Of a stretch of 64,000 nucleotides of DNA, positions 67 to 43,651 are shown piece after piece. The notes under the pieces are model-generated. The model was not told the DNA's origin and searched no databases. It was given only the letters and a program-made list of their open reading frames with translations. Positions within the stretch are counted from its first letter, which is position 1; each line of letters starts with the position of its first letter. The stretch lies in the sequence record NC_031928.1; one strand, written 5' to 3'. Both the position numbers and the translations under genes were made by a program. The stretch comes from Escherichia phage WG01.

Positions 67-765
67 TTAGAACGAGTGGCTTGAGCCTGCTTCCATAGCC
101 AATACATAAGAAGCTTGTGAACCTTCAAACTTGGCTGCGAAACGAGCGTCCTGGCCTTCACCACGGGCCCATAACAATACATGGTAATCGGCAGGCATCA
201 TTTTCATATTAGTTTTGTTGATAATGAATTTGAATTCAGGGCCATCATGATCTGCAACCACTAAGGAATACAATGGACGGGCCAGGTCCTTATCATCAAC
301 TTGTTTGTAGCCATTGATTACAATTTTACCATTGTCTACAGTAATAGCAAATGTATCAATACTCAGTCCAGAGGACACACGCATCAACTGCTGGTAATCT
401 TCGGCTTTAAGGTCAAAAATAACTTCAGCCACCGGGAACGGAATAGCTTTGCTTGGGAATGCAATTGTGCTTGGGTCGGCAATAGGCCACTTAATAGTTG
501 AACGTTGGTCTTTAATAATTAAAGTGGTTTGGTCTTCACTTACCGAAACTTCAGCACTTTCAGATACCAATGACAGAATACTTAAGAAGCCGTTCAGGTC
601 GTAGATTGCGGCTTCGATATCAAAGGTGTCATTTACAGTAGCTTCACCATAACTTGCACCCGTTACTGAACGAGTTAGAATAGTGTTACCAGGTTTAAGC
701 ATGATACCTGGGTTAATACCGGAGAAGTTTTTCAGAATGTTCAGAGTTTCTTTAGAGAATTTCAT
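67..765 (-). CDS. 45: DNA polymerase sliding clamp gp45
   Basis: 232 aa, ATG at 765; N-terminus MKFSKETLNILKNF and length match T4 gp45 as recalled; lies 3' of gp46 as in T4. Confidence 0.92.
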   Translation of the reverse strand: MKFSKETLNILKNFSGINPGIMLKPGNTILTRSVTGASYGEATVNDTFDIEAAIYDLNGFLSILSLVSESAEVSVSEDQTTLIIKDQRSTIKWPIADPSTIAFPSKAIPFPVAEVIFDLKAEDYQQLMRVSSGLSIDTFAITVDNGKIVINGYKQVDDKDLARPLYSLVVADHDGPEFKFIINKTNMKMMPADYHVLLWARGEGQDARFAAKFEGSQASYVLAMEAGSSHSF

Positions 766-5753: not shown

Positions 5754-6311
5754 TTAATCTGATGTTCCATATAAAAAATCCAGTTCACCAACTTTAGGTT
5801 GGGCACTCTTATCAGACCCTGGTGCTTTAGTTAAAGAGGTTTCATACTGAGTCATTTTGTCGTAGATATCTTGGATAAAGGTTTCATCTGCAATACCTAC
5901 CATGTCGTCATCATTACTGTCATAGACATTATGGACGAAGTAGCTATATTTCTTTGCCATTTCTTTACGTTCTTTTTTGATACGCTGAACGAAGGCATTA
6001 AAACAAGCCATAGTGATATATGCATGTGGGTTGTCGTATTTTGTTTCGTCGAAGTTGTGAAGACCTTTAATCGAAGCTTCGATTCCATCAGCAATCATTT
6101 CTTGCTTCCAAGATTGGGTATATCCTGAGAAGTTGAAACGTTTACTTAGTCCTTCAGCAATGAGCATAATAGCCAAGCCGATAACGTCGTTCTGGCGAAC
6201 TATTTTATTAGGATCGGTATTTTCTCTGAGTTCTGTTTTCCATTGGGTGATAGCTTTCAGAAGCTCCTTATTATTTACATAGTTATTTTTAGTCAGTTTA
6301 ATTTCGGTCAT
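5754..6311 (-). CDS. 55: late-transcription sigma factor gp55
   Basis: 185 aa, ATG confirmed; near-identical to T4 gp55 as recalled ([55 protein letters not shown]). Confidence 0.95.
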
Positions 6312-9355: not shown

Positions 9356-9829
9356 TCATTTAAGCGATTTCCTCAGTTGTTTTTTAAATGAATCGACCAT
9401 TTGTTTCTTAGTGTCAGATTCATTATAAGTCATTCCATGTGAAAGCATTTCAGCAATCATTTCTTCCTTACCTAACCTGCTGAACTCTTTGGTTTTATCA
9501 GGAACGAAATTAGGATGGATATTGTTTTCAGTATAATCAGCTTTCAGATAGACCAGCAAATTCTCTAACCATTCGAGGTAGTCAACGTTTTGACCTTTAA
9601 GACCAGAACGGTTGAACTTATGCTTCATTTGTCCTTCTGCAGCATTACACAGATTACATAGTAAACCACGAACCTTACCGGCTTTTGGCCCGTTCAATTC
9701 ATGGTCGTGGTCAAGGTGGTTACTTTGAACATCAGGGTTTAATTCACGTTTACAAATCAAACACTTACCACATTGTGCATCATAAAGTTTTTGTTTTTCT
9801 TCTTTGTATAATTTGCCGGTCAACAACAT
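9356..9829 (-). CDS. 49: recombination endonuclease VII (Holliday junction resolvase) gp49
   Basis: 157 aa, same length and near-identical to T4 endo VII as recalled (MLLTGKLYKEEKQK...CNLCNAAEGQMKHKFNRSGLKGQ). Confidence 0.95.
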   Translation of the reverse strand: MLLTGKLYKEEKQKLYDAQCGKCLICKRELNPDVQSNHLDHDHELNGPKAGKVRGLLCNLCNAAEGQMKHKFNRSGLKGQNVDYLEWLENLLVYLKADYTENNIHPNFVPDKTKEFSRLGKEEMIAEMLSHGMTYNESDTKKQMVDSFKKQLRKSLK

Positions 9830-9864
9830 AATAAACCCTTACCATTATTAGATAAGGGTATTTA

Positions 9865-10062
9865 TTATTTTTCAAATGTACTATAAAACGAGCGATGCAA
9901 CCGTTTAAATTGACGAATCATCTTTTTAGTAGGACGGGTGTATAACCCTACACAAGTGGCCATAAACTGATCAGTAGGACTTCCTTTAATAAGAAGTTTC
10001 CAGACTTTACCGCCATTTAACTTTTCAGTATAAATCAGTTCAGTTTTCATAGTAAAACCCAT
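9865..10062 (-). CDS. hypothetical protein
   Basis: ORF track start is TTG; ATG candidates at 10062 and 10050 with weak RBS. Confidence 0.3.
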   Translation of the reverse strand: MGFTMKTELIYTEKLNGGKVWKLLIKGSPTDQFMATCVGLYTRPTKKMIRQFKRLHRSFYSTFEK

Positions 10063-14504: not shown

Positions 14505-15029
14505 TTATGCGAGAACCGTCTTTAAACGCTCTTCAAATTTCTGAAGCAGAGCTTGGCGTTCAGCTCGTTGTGATTTGTACTGCTCGATACGACCTGAAGT
14601 GAGGGCGTACTGTTCGTTTACTGATTCCCGCATGAATTCAGGAATCTCTTTACAAGCTTTGATTTCGTCAAACTTATCAATAACAGCTTGTTGTTCAGCA
14701 ATCAGATTATCGAAATAAGCGATATCAGATTTAACGTTTGCCAGGTCAGATTCGGTAGGCATTAAACGTTTGTTACGTTCAGCTTGATAAGCTTGATTGG
14801 TTTCACGACTCCAGTGAAGAGTACGTTTTTTGTTAGTGTTTTTATAGAGCTCTACAATACCAACTGAATCGATGACAACAATCCAGTTCCAACGGCTTTT
14901 GTAAATCTCTCCTCCAGATACAGTAATCTCATTACCACAAGCAACGTCGTTAAAGAACTTGCTTTGTTTTTCGGATTTGAAATTACCATTGTTATAATTG
15001 ATGAGTGAAAAAATATCTTTAGCGTTCAT
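14505..15029 (-). CDS. hypothetical protein (174 aa)
   Basis: ORF with coiled-coil C-terminus. Confidence 0.5.
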   Translation of the reverse strand: MNAKDIFSLINYNNGNFKSEKQSKFFNDVACGNEITVSGGEIYKSRWNWIVVIDSVGIVELYKNTNKKRTLHWSRETNQAYQAERNKRLMPTESDLANVKSDIAYFDNLIAEQQAVIDKFDEIKACKEIPEFMRESVNEQYALTSGRIEQYKSQRAERQALLQKFEERLKTVLA

Positions 15030-21551: not shown

Positions 21552-21739
21552 TATTCTTCTACATGCTGTTTACGTTTATTTTTATCTATAAAAGTATATT
21601 CAACATATTCACCAATATACCATTTATCGGTGTTGTGTTGACTTTTTATAGGGCATTTAGTTACTCGTGTTTCGGTCCAGCGTCGAATAATTTCCGCTTT
21701 GTTTTTAGGGTCAAACGGATGCGGGTAATGGGCTTTCAT
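21527..21739 (-). CDS. hypothetical protein (70 aa)
   Basis: ATG ORF. Confidence 0.35.
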   Translation of the reverse strand: MKAHYPHPFDPKNKAEIIRRWTETRVTKCPIKSQHNTDKWYIGEYVEYTFIDKNKRKQHVEEYCLKVQWL

Positions 21740-22178
21740 AATCTACCACCACTAAATTAATATCAGGAGTAAACAAATTAATCAATTGGTAAACCTTGTC
21801 CCAATCACCACCAGCAATACCACAACCAATGCGAGGAATATAAATTCTTGGTTTAAACAAAAGACCTTTTGCGGTACGGTTTAATTCTATCATACAGTTT
21901 ACTAAAGCACCATAATCAAGATTAGGGCCTGGTTCGTATTGGGTATATAAATTATAGCAAATTTGGCCATTATTACCTGTAGCTTGAGTAAACGTGCCAA
22001 GTTTTGCCAAATTGCCTAAATAAGTAGTTTTATCGATAGCGAGAATAGGCGGATAAGCCTTAGCCAATTGCCCAGCTACACCTGAACCCATTGTGTGGAA
22101 ACAGTTGCACCCGTGTGCAACATTATTACCTTGAAGAAACAGGGCGACGATATCGCCCTTAATATAATCAATAATCAT
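21711..22178 (-). CDS. macro-domain protein (ADP-ribose binding/processing fold)
   Basis: 155 aa; Gly-rich loops NVAHGCNCFHTMGSGVAGQL and IGCGIAGGDW resemble macro-domain ligand-binding motifs. Confidence 0.55.
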   Translation of the reverse strand: MIIDYIKGDIVALFLQGNNVAHGCNCFHTMGSGVAGQLAKAYPPILAIDKTTYLGNLAKLGTFTQATGNNGQICYNLYTQYEPGPNLDYGALVNCMIELNRTAKGLLFKPRIYIPRIGCGIAGGDWDKVYQLINLFTPDINLVVVDYESPLPASV

Positions 22179-25727: not shown

Positions 25728-26144
25728 TTAAGCGTAAATAGCCTTGCCGTAATGTTTGTACCAGGTAGAGCGTTGTGCAATTTTTTCGTCCAAACGGGCC
25801 TGAGATATAGCAATAGAAGCTTCGTGTGGAGTATAGTCACCACGGAATTCCTGAGGAATGTCACTAATGTCCTGGACAGTAGTATCCTTGATATTAAAAC
25901 CACGTTTTAAACATTCGGCTATAAGCTCAATTTGTCGCTTACGTAAAAATTCAAGCTTATCGTAAAAGAATGTAACATGGCCTGTGCCAAGGATAAAAGT
26001 AGGACTGATTTTGAAATCACGGACACGTTTACCATTAGCAACATGCTTACGAACTGCACCGAAAACACGTGGTAATTCACGATATTCAGCCATTAAGTGT
26101 TGGTCAGCCAATTCAGATACTAAGGTAAGGTTGATACGAGTCAT
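25728..26144 (-). CDS. denV: endonuclease V (pyrimidine-dimer DNA glycosylase) DenV
   Basis: 138 aa; near-identical to T4 DenV as recalled ([34 protein letters not shown]...). Confidence 0.95.
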
Positions 26145-26224: not shown

Positions 26225-26821
26225 TTAATTACCACGGGCAGCATTAGCAACGGCGTAAGCGTACTGAATATTAGCGTCTTTAAACGTACCTTTAGAGGTA
26301 TCTATTTCTGCCTTAAAGCCGCCTTTAGCCATAACATCGGCAAATTCTTTACGGAAAGTCATTGCATCAAGACCTTTCCATGCGGATTTATGCTTGGCAA
26401 ATTCAAGACCGGCGAAGTTGACCGCCTTAGCCAATTTATTATCAATAGTCCATTTACCTGCTTTAGGTACAAATACAGGACCTTTCTGTTTAGAGAACAG
26501 TTTTAAATTCCAGCGACGAAGGTCGCCGTCAGCTTTAACAAAAGCTGCGTCCAAGTTACTAGCAACAACATCTTGGATATGGGCAAATTTAAGTCCATCA
26601 GCTTCAATATTTAGGTCGTTACGCCAGCGAAGTCCTTCCCAGGCGAAAGCTTTAAAATCAGAAGCTTTTGTAGCCAAGTACCGTTCAATAGGAGCTGTTT
26701 TAGCGTCAAAACCGTTTCCTGGGTTGTCAACGCCGTTTCCTTTGTAAGTCCACTCATCTTTATTAATGCCTTGGACCTTTCCTACAGAAGCTTCGGCGAT
26801 AAATTCTTTATACGTTTTCAT
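26225..26821 (-). CDS. ipIII: internal protein III-like (CTS-tagged, 198 aa)
   Basis: N-terminus MKTYKEFIAE; length and position next to e match T4 IPIII. Confidence 0.7.
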   Translation of the reverse strand: MKTYKEFIAEASVGKVQGINKDEWTYKGNGVDNPGNGFDAKTAPIERYLATKASDFKAFAWEGLRWRNDLNIEADGLKFAHIQDVVASNLDAAFVKADGDLRRWNLKLFSKQKGPVFVPKAGKWTIDNKLAKAVNFAGLEFAKHKSAWKGLDAMTFRKEFADVMAKGGFKAEIDTSKGTFKDANIQYAYAVANAARGN

Positions 26822-26903: not shown

Positions 26904-27302
26904 TTATTTATAGGTCTTCATCCAATTCTTGAACAAAGCCGCGACGTCTTTCTCTTTAACGTTCAGTTTAATGTCCAACATTTTACCACCCGCTGCTCTG
27001 GTTTGGCGAATCTTAGCAGTACCGGTTTCGCCATTCCACTCAACATAATACTGTCCAGTGTTCATTGCAATACCATCACCGTAGTCTTCATTTTTAGAAG
27101 TGGTGAATGCTAGCTTCATAGTCTTAGATACACGAGCCTGCATGCCTGTCTGAAGGGCATTACGAACGCGAATAACCTGAGGAGTGGCCTGGGTCAAGTT
27201 CTCATTCAGTTCTTCAGTGAACTCTTCAGATTCAAACATCGCCAAAAGTTCTTTAGATGCAGGAATTACATTCTCTGCGATAAATTCATTATAAGTTTTC
27301 AT
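26904..27302 (-). CDS. internal-protein-like packaged protein (CTS-tagged, 132 aa)
   Basis: N-terminus [10 protein letters not shown]; T4 ipII position. Confidence 0.6.
26905..26912 (-). promoter_or_regulatory. candidate late promoter TATAAATA
   Basis: exact TATAAATA on the minus strand upstream of ipIII, overlapping the upstream stop codon. Confidence 0.4.
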
Positions 27303-27783
27303 ATGCTTTCCAAGTACCTGTTTTAAATGTTGAAATCACGCGCTTAGCACGATTAGGAGTTTGTTTATACCAACGGGATTGAGCCAGGTTAACTGCCGCA
27401 TCGTTCCAACGTTTCTGTTGGAGCATACGTAAAGAGTTAGTGAACCCTGCTACGCCTGCTTCACCCATTTGGAAGACCATGTTAATTAAAGCACAACGAC
27501 GAACTTCGTCCAGTACATCATAAACAGGTTTCAATTTAGGATTACGCAGAATAGCTCTACGAGCATTTTCAACCGATCGGTTAAAGAGTTGTTCAGCTTC
27601 AGCCATAGTAATACGACCATTACAAACTCGACCCATAAGCTTATCAAGTTCAGCACGAGCAACATCTTTAGAAGGGTTCTTAGTAATCAATTGGCCAATG
27701 CCAATAGTCCAATAACCTTCAGTGTCTTTATAAAGATTTAAATCAAGACCTTCGTCTTGACGTAACATATCAAAAATATCCAT
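27289..27783 (-). CDS. e: lysozyme (endolysin) e
   Basis: 164 aa, same length as T4 lysozyme; catalytic Glu11/Asp20/Thr26 context [21 protein letters not shown] conserved. Confidence 0.95.
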
Positions 27784-27787
27784 AATA

Positions 27788-27813
27788 CCTCCTGAGTATA
27801 GGAGGTATTTATA
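27788..27813 (-). promoter_or_regulatory. late promoter TATAAATA with RBS-sequestering hairpin for e
   Basis: minus strand TATAAATA-CCTCC-tatactca-GGAGG-tatt-ATG; the 5' arm CCTCC can pair with the RBS GGAGG. Confidence 0.6.
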
Positions 27814-28263
27814 TCAAAAGAGTGAATCCAAAACCTTAAACATCGACGGGCCCATGACATATTCCCATTGTGGCCGTTTAATCAAGGCAAAAGCATCGAA
27901 TTCAGGAATAGTACGACCATCAGGGAACGTATGGTAAGCCGTACATTTGCAATCCTTGAACTGCTCGTGTTCCACAGGAACTGTATATAAGAACAGATGT
28001 AGATTCTTATTGCTTGAATATTTGAACTCACCTAGGTCTTTCAGGAACGCAGGATCGTATGCTGTGAATCCAATCTCTTCTTCGGTTTCGCGCATTGCCG
28101 CTTGAATGGGCTCTTCGCCTGGTTCGACATGACCCTTAGGAATGTCCCATTTATGACGCATATTCTCTGGATTACGAGAGCCTGTTACACGGCCCATGAC
28201 CAGTTCTTTATCAACGGTCATGAATAAAATACCGGCAGATAGTTCTTTCACTTTCTTACTCAT
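27814..28263 (-). CDS. nudE: Nudix hydrolase NudE
   Basis: ATG at 28263 gives 150 aa; Nudix box GHVEPGEEPIQAAMRETEEEIG; follows e as in T4. Confidence 0.85.
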   Translation of the reverse strand: MSKKVKELSAGILFMTVDKELVMGRVTGSRNPENMRHKWDIPKGHVEPGEEPIQAAMRETEEEIGFTAYDPAFLKDLGEFKYSSNKNLHLFLYTVPVEHEQFKDCKCTAYHTFPDGRTIPEFDAFALIKRPQWEYVMGPSMFKVLDSLF

Positions 28264-30015: not shown

Positions 30016-30056
30016 TTGATAGGTCTATAGTATCACACCTATAGACCTTGTACACT
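30016..30056 (-). promoter_or_regulatory. promoter cassette variant (GTGTACA -35)
   Basis: dyad GGTCTATAG/CTATAGACC around TACTATAGACC. Confidence 0.5.
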
Positions 30057-35988: not shown

Positions 35989-36453
35989 TTATTTGATTTG
36001 TTTAGCAGACCAGATACGGTCTTTGATGATTTTCTGAATATCTTCAACATACTCTAAGTCGTGAGCATGTGGATTATCTTTGAAGCTATGTGCTCGTGCC
36101 AGTTTCTGGCCTTCTGTTTTGATTACTAAAAGCTCTTTAAGAATTGCTTCATACTTAGAAATAATTCCTTTGGCGATATTTTTTTCTTGAGCGGCTTTAG
36201 GGTCCGCTTTTGACGCAGGTGCTTTACCTGTAGCTTTCTGGAACAATTCACCTGATGCAGCTAGGCTTTTAAAAACTCGGCTAACAGTATTGGCATTAGT
36301 AAAACCTTCGGCTTTAAAATCTTTAATAAAACGGAAACGTTCTTCATCAGAGGCGTCTTTGTAAGAATATTTACCTGCTTGAATTGCTGCAATCGCAGCG
36401 GCTTTTACATCTGAACTAGATTGTTCAGTCAAAAATTCATTGTAAGTTTTCAT
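35989..36453 (-). CDS. internal-protein-like packaged protein (CTS-tagged, 154 aa)
   Basis: N-terminus [10 protein letters not shown]; late promoter ~27 nt upstream. Confidence 0.6.
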   Translation of the reverse strand: MKTYNEFLTEQSSSDVKAAAIAAIQAGKYSYKDASDEERFRFIKDFKAEGFTNANTVSRVFKSLAASGELFQKATGKAPASKADPKAAQEKNIAKGIISKYEAILKELLVIKTEGQKLARAHSFKDNPHAHDLEYVEDIQKIIKDRIWSAKQIK

Positions 36454-36898: not shown

Positions 36899-36973
36899 TG
36901 GTATCCCGCCCTGGGATCGAACCAGGACCGCAAACTTAGAAGGATCGTATGCTATCCATTACACCAGCGGGAC
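36899..36973 (-). tRNA. tRNA-Arg (anticodon TCT)
   Basis: minus strand cloverleaf with anticodon loop CTTCTAA, T-loop GGTTCGATCC and encoded CCA. Confidence 0.8.
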
Positions 36974-36978
36974 GTAGT

Positions 36979-37055
36979 TGGTGACCCAGACCAGATTTGA
37001 ACTGGTAACCTTTCCCTTATGAGGGGACTGCTGCTAACCATTGAGCTACAGGGCC
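36979..37055 (-). tRNA. tRNA with CAT anticodon (Met or lysidine-type Ile)
   Basis: minus strand GGCCCTGTAGCTCAATGGTTAGCAGCAGTCCCCTCATAAGGGAAAGG...GTTCAAATC...CCA. Confidence 0.7.
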
Positions 37056-37327: not shown

Positions 37328-37506
37328 AAACACCTCAAATAAAATTAAGTAAAGTAAGTTTGATTAATAGACCTTGTCTATTATGAAAGGTTCTTTGAGG
37401 GAAGAACCTTTGGTAATAGAGGGTTACTTAATAATGTTAGAGTAATAATAACACATTACTCTTAAAGCATATTACTATTTTTAGGAATAGTCTGGTCAAA
37501 TTTGAT

Positions 37507-39345: not shown

Positions 39346-39385
39346 TTGATAGGTCTATAGTATCATGCCTATAGACCTTGTAAAC
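39346..39385 (-). promoter_or_regulatory. early promoter cassette
   Basis: GTTTACA -35; dyad GGTCTATAG/CTATAGACC. Confidence 0.55.
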
Positions 39386-41729: not shown

Positions 41730-42557
41730 TTATGAATTCTTCCATACTTTCTGAGCTGAATAACGCTTGCCTTTAGACATGAACTGTTGGAGCGGCATCA
41801 TTACGACATTAGCCCAATCAGACGGTTTTATCTCTACTAAAGGTCCCTTAATATTTCCAGGGATATAAGCCTTAATCATCACGTCGGCGCCAGCGAATCC
41901 TTTTACCTTACTCCAATCGATTTTTAATTTAGTCGAGTTCGTAATGGTAGGCGTACTCGCGTATTGCTTCAGCAATTCTTCCAGAAATTGCTGACGTGCT
42001 TTAGGTGGAATATAGTGTAAGTTCAGTCCGTACATTAAATTATGCTTACCTAACCCAAGATAAATTATTAAAGGATATTTGTCCCAGTATGGTAGGGTAT
42101 CCTTATGTTTGGCATCATAGATATAAGCATAAAGCTTACCAGGAGACGGTTTAGATACCTGGTGCCCACGAATTCCTTTCTTTAATGTTTCTGTAAACCA
42201 TTTAGCCGATTTATTGTTTACAGCGGCGCCCTCGTTAGCAATCTTATCACGAATACTCTTTCTAAAACTATTCACCAAAATTAATTGACGTTCTGCTTTG
42301 GTTAATTTATTGCCAGGTTTCTTCTGAAGTTTTTCAACCTGTACAGCAGTTTTAATTCGACTCGAGTATCGAGACATCGCAGATGTAAAGCTAGAATACT
42401 TGATGCCTTTATCTTCAGCGAATTTCTTAGCCGAAACACCTTTAGCCTTAGCGTTGGCATATTCAACGCCTAAAGTTATCCATTGTTGTTCTGAACGAGT
42501 AGGCTTGGAACCTTTTGTAGTTTCAGTAGCCTCGTTGATGTAAGAAAATATACTCAT
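41730..42557 (-). CDS. 2: DNA end protector gp2
   Basis: ~275 aa; ATG at 42557 overlaps gp4 stop; position as in T4. Confidence 0.8.
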
Positions 42558-43003
42558 CCTTTCCATCCTAATTTTTTCAGTGAGTTTTCGGTAATCAATC
42601 TGAAATTAATTCCCATTTTATCTGCTGTAGCTTTAGCAGCTTTCCATTTATCTTTATTTACACTCCATGTATAATGTTCGTTGATATATCTCTTTTTAGC
42701 AGCTGTAGTCATTTTAGCAGGCGCCGCTGGAGGATGGGTCTCTTTAAAAGGTTTGACTTCGAAAAAGAATTGTTGACCATTGTCGAACTTCACCCAGAAG
42801 TCCATAAAATACCGACGTTTCTTTCCATCAGCGTTACTAAAATATGGAATCACAACCTCTTCCGAGTTCCACTGGACGACATTAGGATGGTTGTCAAGCC
42901 AACGCATAAGCCATGCTTCCCAAGAGGAACGATATTGGATTTTCTTCCAATCACCTTTATATTTTTGTAAGTTTGTAGGTTTAAATTTCCCTGAGTAGGC
43001 CAT
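42554..43003 (-). CDS. 4: head completion protein gp4
   Basis: 149 aa (T4 gp4 is 150); AGGAGG RBS; divergent from gene 53. Confidence 0.85.
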
Positions 43004-43048
43004 AGTGCCTCCTTATAAATATTAATATTATTTATACTCGGAGGCACT
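43003..43048. promoter_or_regulatory. divergent late-promoter region for genes 4 and 53
   Basis: TATAAATA on the plus strand (43014..43021) and on the minus strand (43029..43036), bracketed by a perfect 9-bp inverted repeat AGTGCCTCC/GGAGGCACT that contains both RBSs. Confidence 0.65.
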
Positions 43049-43651
43049 ATGCTCTTCTCATTTTTCGATCCTATAAATTACGAATCAAAAACAGTCAAGC
43101 CAGATTCCGGCTCATTAACTGATGCCGATGTACTGAGCGTACCGATGACTGATATATTTAGAAACTATAAAGAATATTTTGATAAAGTGGCTAAAAATTA
43201 TACACTTAAAACATATTATATCAGTGGGGCCCCTCGTCCAGAAGAATTAGCCCATCAACTTTATGGTAACGTGCAATTATATTGGGTTTTATTGATGTGT
43301 AATAACGTATATGACCCTTATTACGGCTGGATTACAGGCCAAGAATCTGCGTATCAAGCAGCTATTCAACGTTATGCTACTGCAGGCGGAAACCAAGTCC
43401 TTTATCATGTCAATGAAAAGGGTGAGAAATTCTGGAATCTAGTAAATACTCCGGAAAATCCTTATACTTGGTACGATAAAGGTGATACAGAAAAACGTTA
43501 TCCTCAATATGAAGGTCCTTTGGCTGCAGTAGATATTTACGAGGACGCCATTCGTAAAAATGAATATAAGCGCGAAATAAAGATTATAGACCCTAATGAC
43601 ATCGAGTCCTTTGTTTCCGCTTTAATTAGAGAAATGGAGAAAGCCCTCTAA
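43049..43651 (+). CDS. 53: baseplate wedge protein gp53
   Basis: 200 aa; MLFSFFDPINYESKT matches T4 gp53 as recalled. Confidence 0.9.
   Translation: MLFSFFDPINYESKTVKPDSGSLTDADVLSVPMTDIFRNYKEYFDKVAKNYTLKTYYISGAPRPEELAHQLYGNVQLYWVLLMCNNVYDPYYGWITGQESAYQAAIQRYATAGGNQVLYHVNEKGEKFWNLVNTPENPYTWYDKGDTEKRYPQYEGPLAAVDIYEDAIRKNEYKREIKIIDPNDIESFVSALIREMEKAL

Follow-up and report, generated by a model that had tools for sequence, protein, structure and literature searches.

The window analysed here, that is, the whole stretch of 64,000 nucleotides from Escherichia phage WG01 (NC_031928.1), belongs to a Dhakavirus, or JS98-like relative of T4, with 99.8% identity to Escherichia phage PSD2002 and 90% to JS98 (1.2 kb). 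On its minus strand, the early-type gene nudE (27814..28263), a Nudix hydrolase CDS recognized by its Pfam NUDIX match (7.5e-15) and by the annotation of nudE at the homologous position of JS98, lies directly upstream of gene e (27289..27783), which encodes the T4-type lysozyme, or endolysin, of 164 amino acids. The latter was assigned by homology and Pfam: gene e has 75.6% identity to the T4 e locus, residues 1-164 of its protein align end to end with the T4 lysozyme of the PDB (E ~1e-81), the PF00959 (Phage_lysozyme) family is matched, and residues E11, D20, and T26 are invariant. The gene order nudE-e-two internal-protein-like genes-denV, with a Pfam Pyr_excise match in this context, is that of T4, and e sits within a long array of co-directional ORFs. 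The window also carries gene 55 (5754..6311, minus strand; phrog_234 late sigma transcription factor, 1e-68), whose product recognizes TATAAATA as the late sigma factor and acts in trans, as well as the gp45 clamp (67..765; phrog_223, 1e-77).

At its 3' end, e overlaps the start of a 132-aa ORF by 14 nt (27289-27302). This ORF (26904..27302) and two other minus-strand ORFs (26225..26821 and 35989..36453) begin with MKTY(N/K)EF..., a start that resembles the capsid-targeting N-terminus of the T4 internal proteins. The order of the 132-aa and 198-aa ORFs is reversed relative to JS98; one copy of TATAAATA (36487-36480) precedes ORF 35989..36453, and another (26912-26905) overlaps the stop of the 132-aa ORF, 84 nt ahead of the next ATG.

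The minus-strand leader of e consists of the 30 nt separating the nudE stop from the e ATG, TATAAATA-CCTCC-TATACTCA-GGAGG-TATT, flanked by ...ctc ttt TGA upstream and ATG gat att ttt... downstream. The nudE stop TGA (27816-27814) adjoins TATAAATA (27806..27813), an exact consensus octamer and therefore a predicted late promoter box of the gp55 type, which is followed by CCTCC (27805-27801), an anti-Shine-Dalgarno sequence (anti-SD, CCUCC in the RNA); after an intervening loop region (27800-27793), the Shine-Dalgarno sequence (SD) of e, GGAGG (27792-27788), the TATT spacer (27787-27784), and the ATG (27783-27781) complete the leader. A previous sequence-only reading had given this same minus-strand string, which matches the sequence exactly, and had placed the element at 27783-27815, a range that covers the leader and reaches into the ATG by one base only.

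Predicted folding of read-through and late-type e transcripts

In T4, the late box occupies promoter positions -13..-6 (PMC1524935), and with TATAAATA taken in this position, CCTCC falls at -5..-1 and the predicted transcription start is near 27800, directly beyond CCUCC. Both this rule and the transcript ends of T4 (PMC3014915, Fig. 5) point to a late start region at 27797..27800. The predicted +1 lies 6 nt past the last A of TATAAATA, in a CCTYC-TATA context that is identical in T4; its base is T, and the true late start may be 1-3 nt off.

The RNA fold (ViennaRNA) is a stem of 10 perfect pairs, 27809-27800 with 27793-27784, closed by a 6-nt loop and with a stability of -13.4 kcal/mol. Its 5' arm, AAUACCUCCU (27800..27809), contains CCUCC and corresponds to positions -9..+1 of the predicted start; the loop is AUACUC (27794..27799); and the 3' arm, AGGAGGUAUU (27784..27793), contains GGAGG and the spacer up to the AUG, so that the stem takes in the final four bases of the promoter octamer as well as the entire SD-to-AUG spacer. 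The pairing of CCTCC with GGAGG had already been noticed in the sequence-only reading, and it holds, with the correction that the stem extends over 10 bp rather than 5 bp. The hairpin has a z of -4.81, and 0/200 dinucleotide shuffles were equally stable.

Folding the leader from different 5' ends gave two clearly separate predicted states. With 5' ends from 28263 to 27809, as in read-through RNA, opening the segment from the SD to the AUG (27793-27781) would cost 11.7-14.8 kcal/mol, and GGAGG is unpaired with a probability of ~0.0001 (a mean of 0.013 in another sequence context); with late-type 5' ends from 27802 to 27795, the predicted cost falls to 4.75-3.7 kcal/mol and the unpaired probability rises to ~0.21-0.24 (0.49 in another sequence context). 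The late-type leader is thus still partly closed, with an unpaired SD probability of ~0.2-0.5. This comparison of early and late leaders had been proposed as a check of the earlier reading, and it came out as predicted there, with GGAGG paired in the read-through RNA and freed when the 5' arm is absent; the accompanying logic of a late start past the 5' arm, for which the +1 is itself deduced, is consistent with all of our in silico tests.

As for the origin of a read-through RNA, the nearest upstream early-type promoter-like site on the same strand is TGTACA-16 nt-TGaTACTAT at 30054-30027 (-), ~2.2 kb upstream of e, and this putative promoter (30027..30054), one of nine near-identical copies, might supply the early RNA that reads through into e. 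MotA-box-type matches number 8 in the window vs 1.4 expected, one of them lying on the same strand at 33034-33010. A terminator scan of the minus strand found no terminator-like site between either 30027 or the MotA-type site at 33034-33010 and e.

The e start site is the most strongly folded of the window: its fold (-35..+3) has -14.1 kcal/mol and ranks 1/106 among the gene starts, taken from crude gene calls within the window, with a median of -2.95. When the same starts are ranked by SD accessibility over a fixed -14..-5 interval, e falls to rank 46, since four of these ten bases belong to the loop, and for this reason that ranking was set aside in favor of the local MFE rank and of the GGAGG bases themselves. 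The e leader is one of only 4 hairpins of the window that have a perfect stem of 10 bp or more and a loop of 3-10 nt, compared with 0.6 +/- 0.9 in 30 dinucleotide shuffles. The Rfam covariance models detected two tRNAs only in the whole window, with no match for the hairpin; at 27600-28000, the best E was 1.6, and the matches were on the opposite strand only.

The octamer itself is not enriched, with 7 copies of TATAAATA in the window vs 7.6 expected, and in 5/7 copies, the last A is followed by a start codon on the same strand at a distance of 22-28 nt. Immediately past the box, T4 late promoters are usually AT-rich (PMC2988020), and downstream of the six other TATAAATA sites of the window, the sequence is AT-rich or mixed, none of them having CCTCC. 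The GC-rich CCTCC of the e leader is therefore atypical for a late promoter and looks selected as an anti-SD, not as a part of the promoter.

Conservation of the leader across Tevenvirinae

The e loci of annotated phages of eight genera (Tequatro-, Mosig-, Dhaka-, Kanagawa-, Marfa-, Winkler-, Karam-, and Jiaodavirus) and of IMG/VR contigs provided 23 distinct leaders once duplicates were removed. In 23/23 leaders, (T/A/G)ATAAATA is present and starts 28-35 nt ahead of the ATG, and, likewise in all 23, the five bases of the CCUCC-type pentamer at -5..-1 are paired to SD purines. The stems have 7-12 bp, with stabilities of -8.7 to -15.9 kcal/mol and z values of -3.3 to -8.4. The earlier statement that the T4 gene e arrangement is conserved in this phage is borne out, and the box and the paired SD are kept in all of the 23 leaders.

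The remainder of the stem follows two registers. In the outward register, found in Tequatro-, Mosig-, and Dhakavirus, the promoter AAUA pairs with the UAUU of the spacer; in the inward register, found in Kanagawa-, Marfa-, Winkler-, Karam-, and Jiaodavirus, the stem is extended inward (CUCCUAUC/GAUAGGAG), as UAUC/GAUA, and the spacer is unrelated. The five inward-register genera have in common with the window the xATAAATA box followed by a CUCC-type anti-SD at -5..-1 paired to GGAG, but they differ from it in leaving the promoter bases and the SD-AUG spacer outside the stem and in having A or G, not T, at position -13. Given that ATAAATA is invariant even in the genera whose stem excludes those bases, its conservation is argued to be that of a promoter, and not that of a stem. 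In the lineage represented by L019, L031, and L043, the SD is GGGGG and the anti-SD is CCCC, the two having changed together. In every genus examined, the stop codon of the upstream gene is within or beside the promoter box.

Base pairs were counted on a hand-made, N-padded structural alignment, which was fitted by hand to the per-sequence folds of related sequences, so that all of the following counts are biased towards structure. In this alignment, no cell of the five core pairs is unpaired; one compensatory double change, U-A to C-G, and six G-U changes occur; overall, 84.8% of the cells are paired, vs at most 54.9% with slid partners; and 0/500 shuffles reach any of the observed measures. 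Strict covariation is thin, as the promoter and the SD impose constraints of their own on the two arms. A plain MAFFT alignment of the 23 leaders was discarded, given that it places the two registers one column out of phase and is unusable for pair counts.

The element is absent from the leaders examined of the e-like genes of Justusliebigvirus, Angelvirus, and Tulanevirus, in agreement with the list of phages having e without the structure in a published review (PMC3014915, Fig. 5 legend). Another set of leaders belongs to distant e-like lysozymes of IMG/VR (loci L063-L074, positions ~640-703), with 37-50% identity and located in viral contigs of ~30 kb. These leaders contain long hairpins of similar appearance, CCTC(T)CATAAATA...TATTTATGAGG-ATG, where the purine run ahead of the ATG faces a 5' arm made up of a CCUC segment and an ATAAATA-like run. 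A genome scan for lysozymes of this type returned four loci only, the best in a Sphingobacterium MAG, and this set was given no weight as evidence for the e leader.

From this comparison, we tentatively suggest, as a possibility that we would still hold to be rather doubtful, that what is constant across at least eight genera is the rule placing the anti-SD at -5..-1 and not the stem sequence, that the rest of the stem can be built in two exchangeable ways, and that ribosomes terminating at the upstream stop may belong to the switch as a conserved component. Over known work, the present analysis adds only the cross-genus picture, in which the stem follows two registers while the anti-SD stays at -5..-1, and a figure of the 2010 review (PMC3014915) may already show part of it. 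The comparison speaks for selection on the structure itself, not on its sequence, and it supplies a natural test set for models of RBS accessibility; the leader comparison opens no new question.

Related hairpins and promoters elsewhere in the window

The same design as that of e is found in the leader (9820-9880) of the gene 49 orthologue (ORF 9356..9829, minus strand; endonuclease VII, phrog_423 1e-59), which reads AATAAATA-CCCUUAUC...GGUAAGGG-UUUAUU-AUG with a CCCUUA...UAAGGG stem. Its read-through RNA folds with -15.5 kcal/mol (z = -3.65, 0/200 shuffles) vs -2.3 when begun 6 nt past the box. Gene 49 of T4 is a known case of control by a promoter within a hairpin (PMC3014915).

At 42992-43060, the divergent intergenic region of 45 nt between a gp4-like ORF (42554..43003, minus strand) and a gp53-like ORF (43049..43651, plus strand) is a near-perfect palindrome, in which two back-to-back TATAAATA boxes make the inner stem and CAUAGUGCCUCC/GGAGGCACUAUG the outer stem of 12 bp. 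In the RNA of either strand, the outer stem covers the SD and the AUG of the respective gene (-27.9 and -27.4 kcal/mol; z = -7.4 and -6.1), and RNAs begun past the boxes have -5.4 and -5.9 kcal/mol. Weaker versions of the gp4/gp53 palindrome are present in T4, Kosakonia phage 305, CHI14, Roth51, and a Mosigvirus.

The minus strand also has nine near-identical early-type promoters, GT(T/G)TACA-N14-TGa-TACTAT-AGACCTATCAA, with their -10 hexamers starting at 39362, 35309, 30032, 26177, 23576, 19657, 16773, 16461, and 15061, and these are comparable to the PeSL cassettes (PMC2839356, PMC4122927). In several of them, the spacer includes a segment complementary to the following gene's SD, as before denV at 26144 (aTCTCCTGTAG...CTACAGGAGAt) and before ORF 14505..15029 (TCTCCAGTAG...CTACTGGAGG), and, because of this complementarity, the design of a promoter inside the blocking arm may also serve early promoters. 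Two of the four perfect 10-bp hairpins of the window, at 30021-30048 and 39351-39378, are the same element, AGGTCTATAG-N8-CTATAGACCT, and overlap the spacer, the -10, and the +1 of two of these early-type promoters. The fourth perfect 10-bp hairpin (37386-37411), AAAGGTTCTT-TGAGGG-AAGAACCTTT, lies ~330 nt upstream, in the minus-strand sense, of a tRNA-Met/tRNA-Arg pair (36899-37055).

Proposed control of e and its relation to T4 gene e

We regard it as very probable that the element of the window is the JS98-like Dhakavirus orthologue of the translational control of T4 gene e, with its transcript ends, early read-through, and size of the translational effect taken as predictions. In this mechanism, early in infection, the host RNA polymerase would start from upstream promoters on the same strand and read via nudE into e; in the resulting read-through RNA, AAUACCUCCU would pair with AGGAGGUAUU, burying the SD and the spacer to the AUG in the 10-bp hairpin, and with the SD buried, 30S subunits could not bind and no premature lysozyme would be made. 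After the onset of replication, the polymerase modified by gp55, gp33, and gp45 would start at TATAAATA, inside the 5' half of the hairpin itself, and the late RNA, beginning from ~27800 just past CCUCC and without the blocking arm, would be translated.

A leaky or coupled variant of this control, in which ribosomes ending at the nudE stop unfold the 5' arm, allow re-initiation at e, and let the element tune a low early lysozyme level, takes its main argument from the layout of the leader: the nudE stop TGA (27816-27814) abuts TATAAATA at 4 nt from the first paired base, a neighborhood of stop and box found in all genera examined, and a ribosome terminating there would sit on roughly six bases of the 5' arm, opening it for a short time. 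Nevertheless, the layout of T4 is closely similar, and yet its early e RNA gives ~100-fold less lysozyme (PMC3014915); furthermore, a local hairpin of 10 bp and -13.4 kcal/mol should refold fast after the ribosome leaves, and 30 nt lie between the nudE stop and the AUG, so that on this evidence we hold coupling to be improbable, although it is a real caveat and some coupled translation of e may take place early. The stable stem, placed right after a stop codon, could also be read as chiefly a 3' stabilizer or terminator of the early nudE RNA, with an incidental overlap with the RBS, and we consider this very improbable, given that the partner of the 5' arm is the SD itself in 23/23 leaders, which is unneeded for a terminator, and that the stem is followed by AUGGAUAUUUUUG without any U-run, its 3' arm ending in UAUU beside the AUG. 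The hairpin was in fact tried as an intrinsic terminator and rejected: a GC-rich stem with a U-run is not what is found there, the tail is AUGGAUAU, and the terminator scan does not call it.

It is also conceivable that e is silenced early not by the hairpin but by the RegB endonuclease, through cleavage at the GGAG within the SD, since the SD of e does hold GGAG and RegB cuts this motif in many early translation initiation regions of T4 (PMC3014915, sections 5-8). Strong RegB sites, however, fit GGAGRAYARAA (PMC3014915), and the e site, GGAGGUAUUAU, fits only 2/7 positions past GGAG; structure protects GGAG, RegB does not cut late transcripts readily (PMC3014915, section 8), and GGAG is paired in the predicted fold of the read-through RNA, all of which makes RegB scarcely credible as the explanation. 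No regB was identified in the scanned part of the window, and the ORF expected to be regB by T4 order (21711..22178, minus strand, 155 aa) turned out to be a Macro-domain protein (PF01661, 7.4e-08).

The preferred reading, that of translational control by an embedded late promoter, would prevent the synthesis of the endolysin from early read-through RNA and, with it, a possible premature lysis of the cell, and the switch would work without a protein regulator, by the choice of the transcription start alone. The element is of help in annotating late promoters and in designing engineered phages.

In T4, early transcripts running into e form an inhibitory structure, and lysozyme synthesis from them is ~100-fold lower (McPheeters et al. 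1986, Nucleic Acids Res 14:5813, as cited in PMC3014915, section 29), whereas the RNAs from either of two late promoters a short way upstream of the RBS are without the 5' strand and are well translated (PMC3014915, section 29). Closely related T4-type phages were predicted to have similar e leaders, each holding a late promoter within its 5' strand (Uzan & Miller 2010, PMC3014915); the text of that review makes no mention of JS98. To judge from its leader, the element of the window is the orthologue of this T4 control device, already known and conserved in Dhakavirus. The two have in common an orthologous e, the upstream nudE, and the strand, as well as the order TATAAATA, anti-SD, loop, GGAGG, UAUU, AUG and the stem register AAUACCUYCU/AGGAGGUAUU, and their stabilities are -12.6 kcal/mol in T4 and -13.4 in the window. 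They differ in that T4 has two late promoters, with the second TATAAATA in the loop, whereas in the window, the loop copy is degenerate (TATACTCA) and there is one promoter; the loop of the fold has 8 nt in T4 and 6 nt in the window; the anti-SD of T4 is CCUUC with a G-U pair, whereas the CCUCC of the window pairs perfectly; and the nudE stop is 7 nt from the first paired base in T4 and 4 nt in the window, that is, 3 nt closer to the promoter in the latter. The mechanism is experimental for T4 e, whereas in the phage of the window, it is deduced from the sequence. Other translational controls with a promoter within a hairpin are those of T4 genes 49, soc, and I-TevI (PMC3014915, section 29; PMC2988022), which share with the e leader the common logic by which the RNA from an upstream promoter hides the RBS and the RNA from the embedded late promoter is without the 5' arm, but they concern different genes with unrelated stem sequences and are therefore analogous, not homologous, to the e leader.
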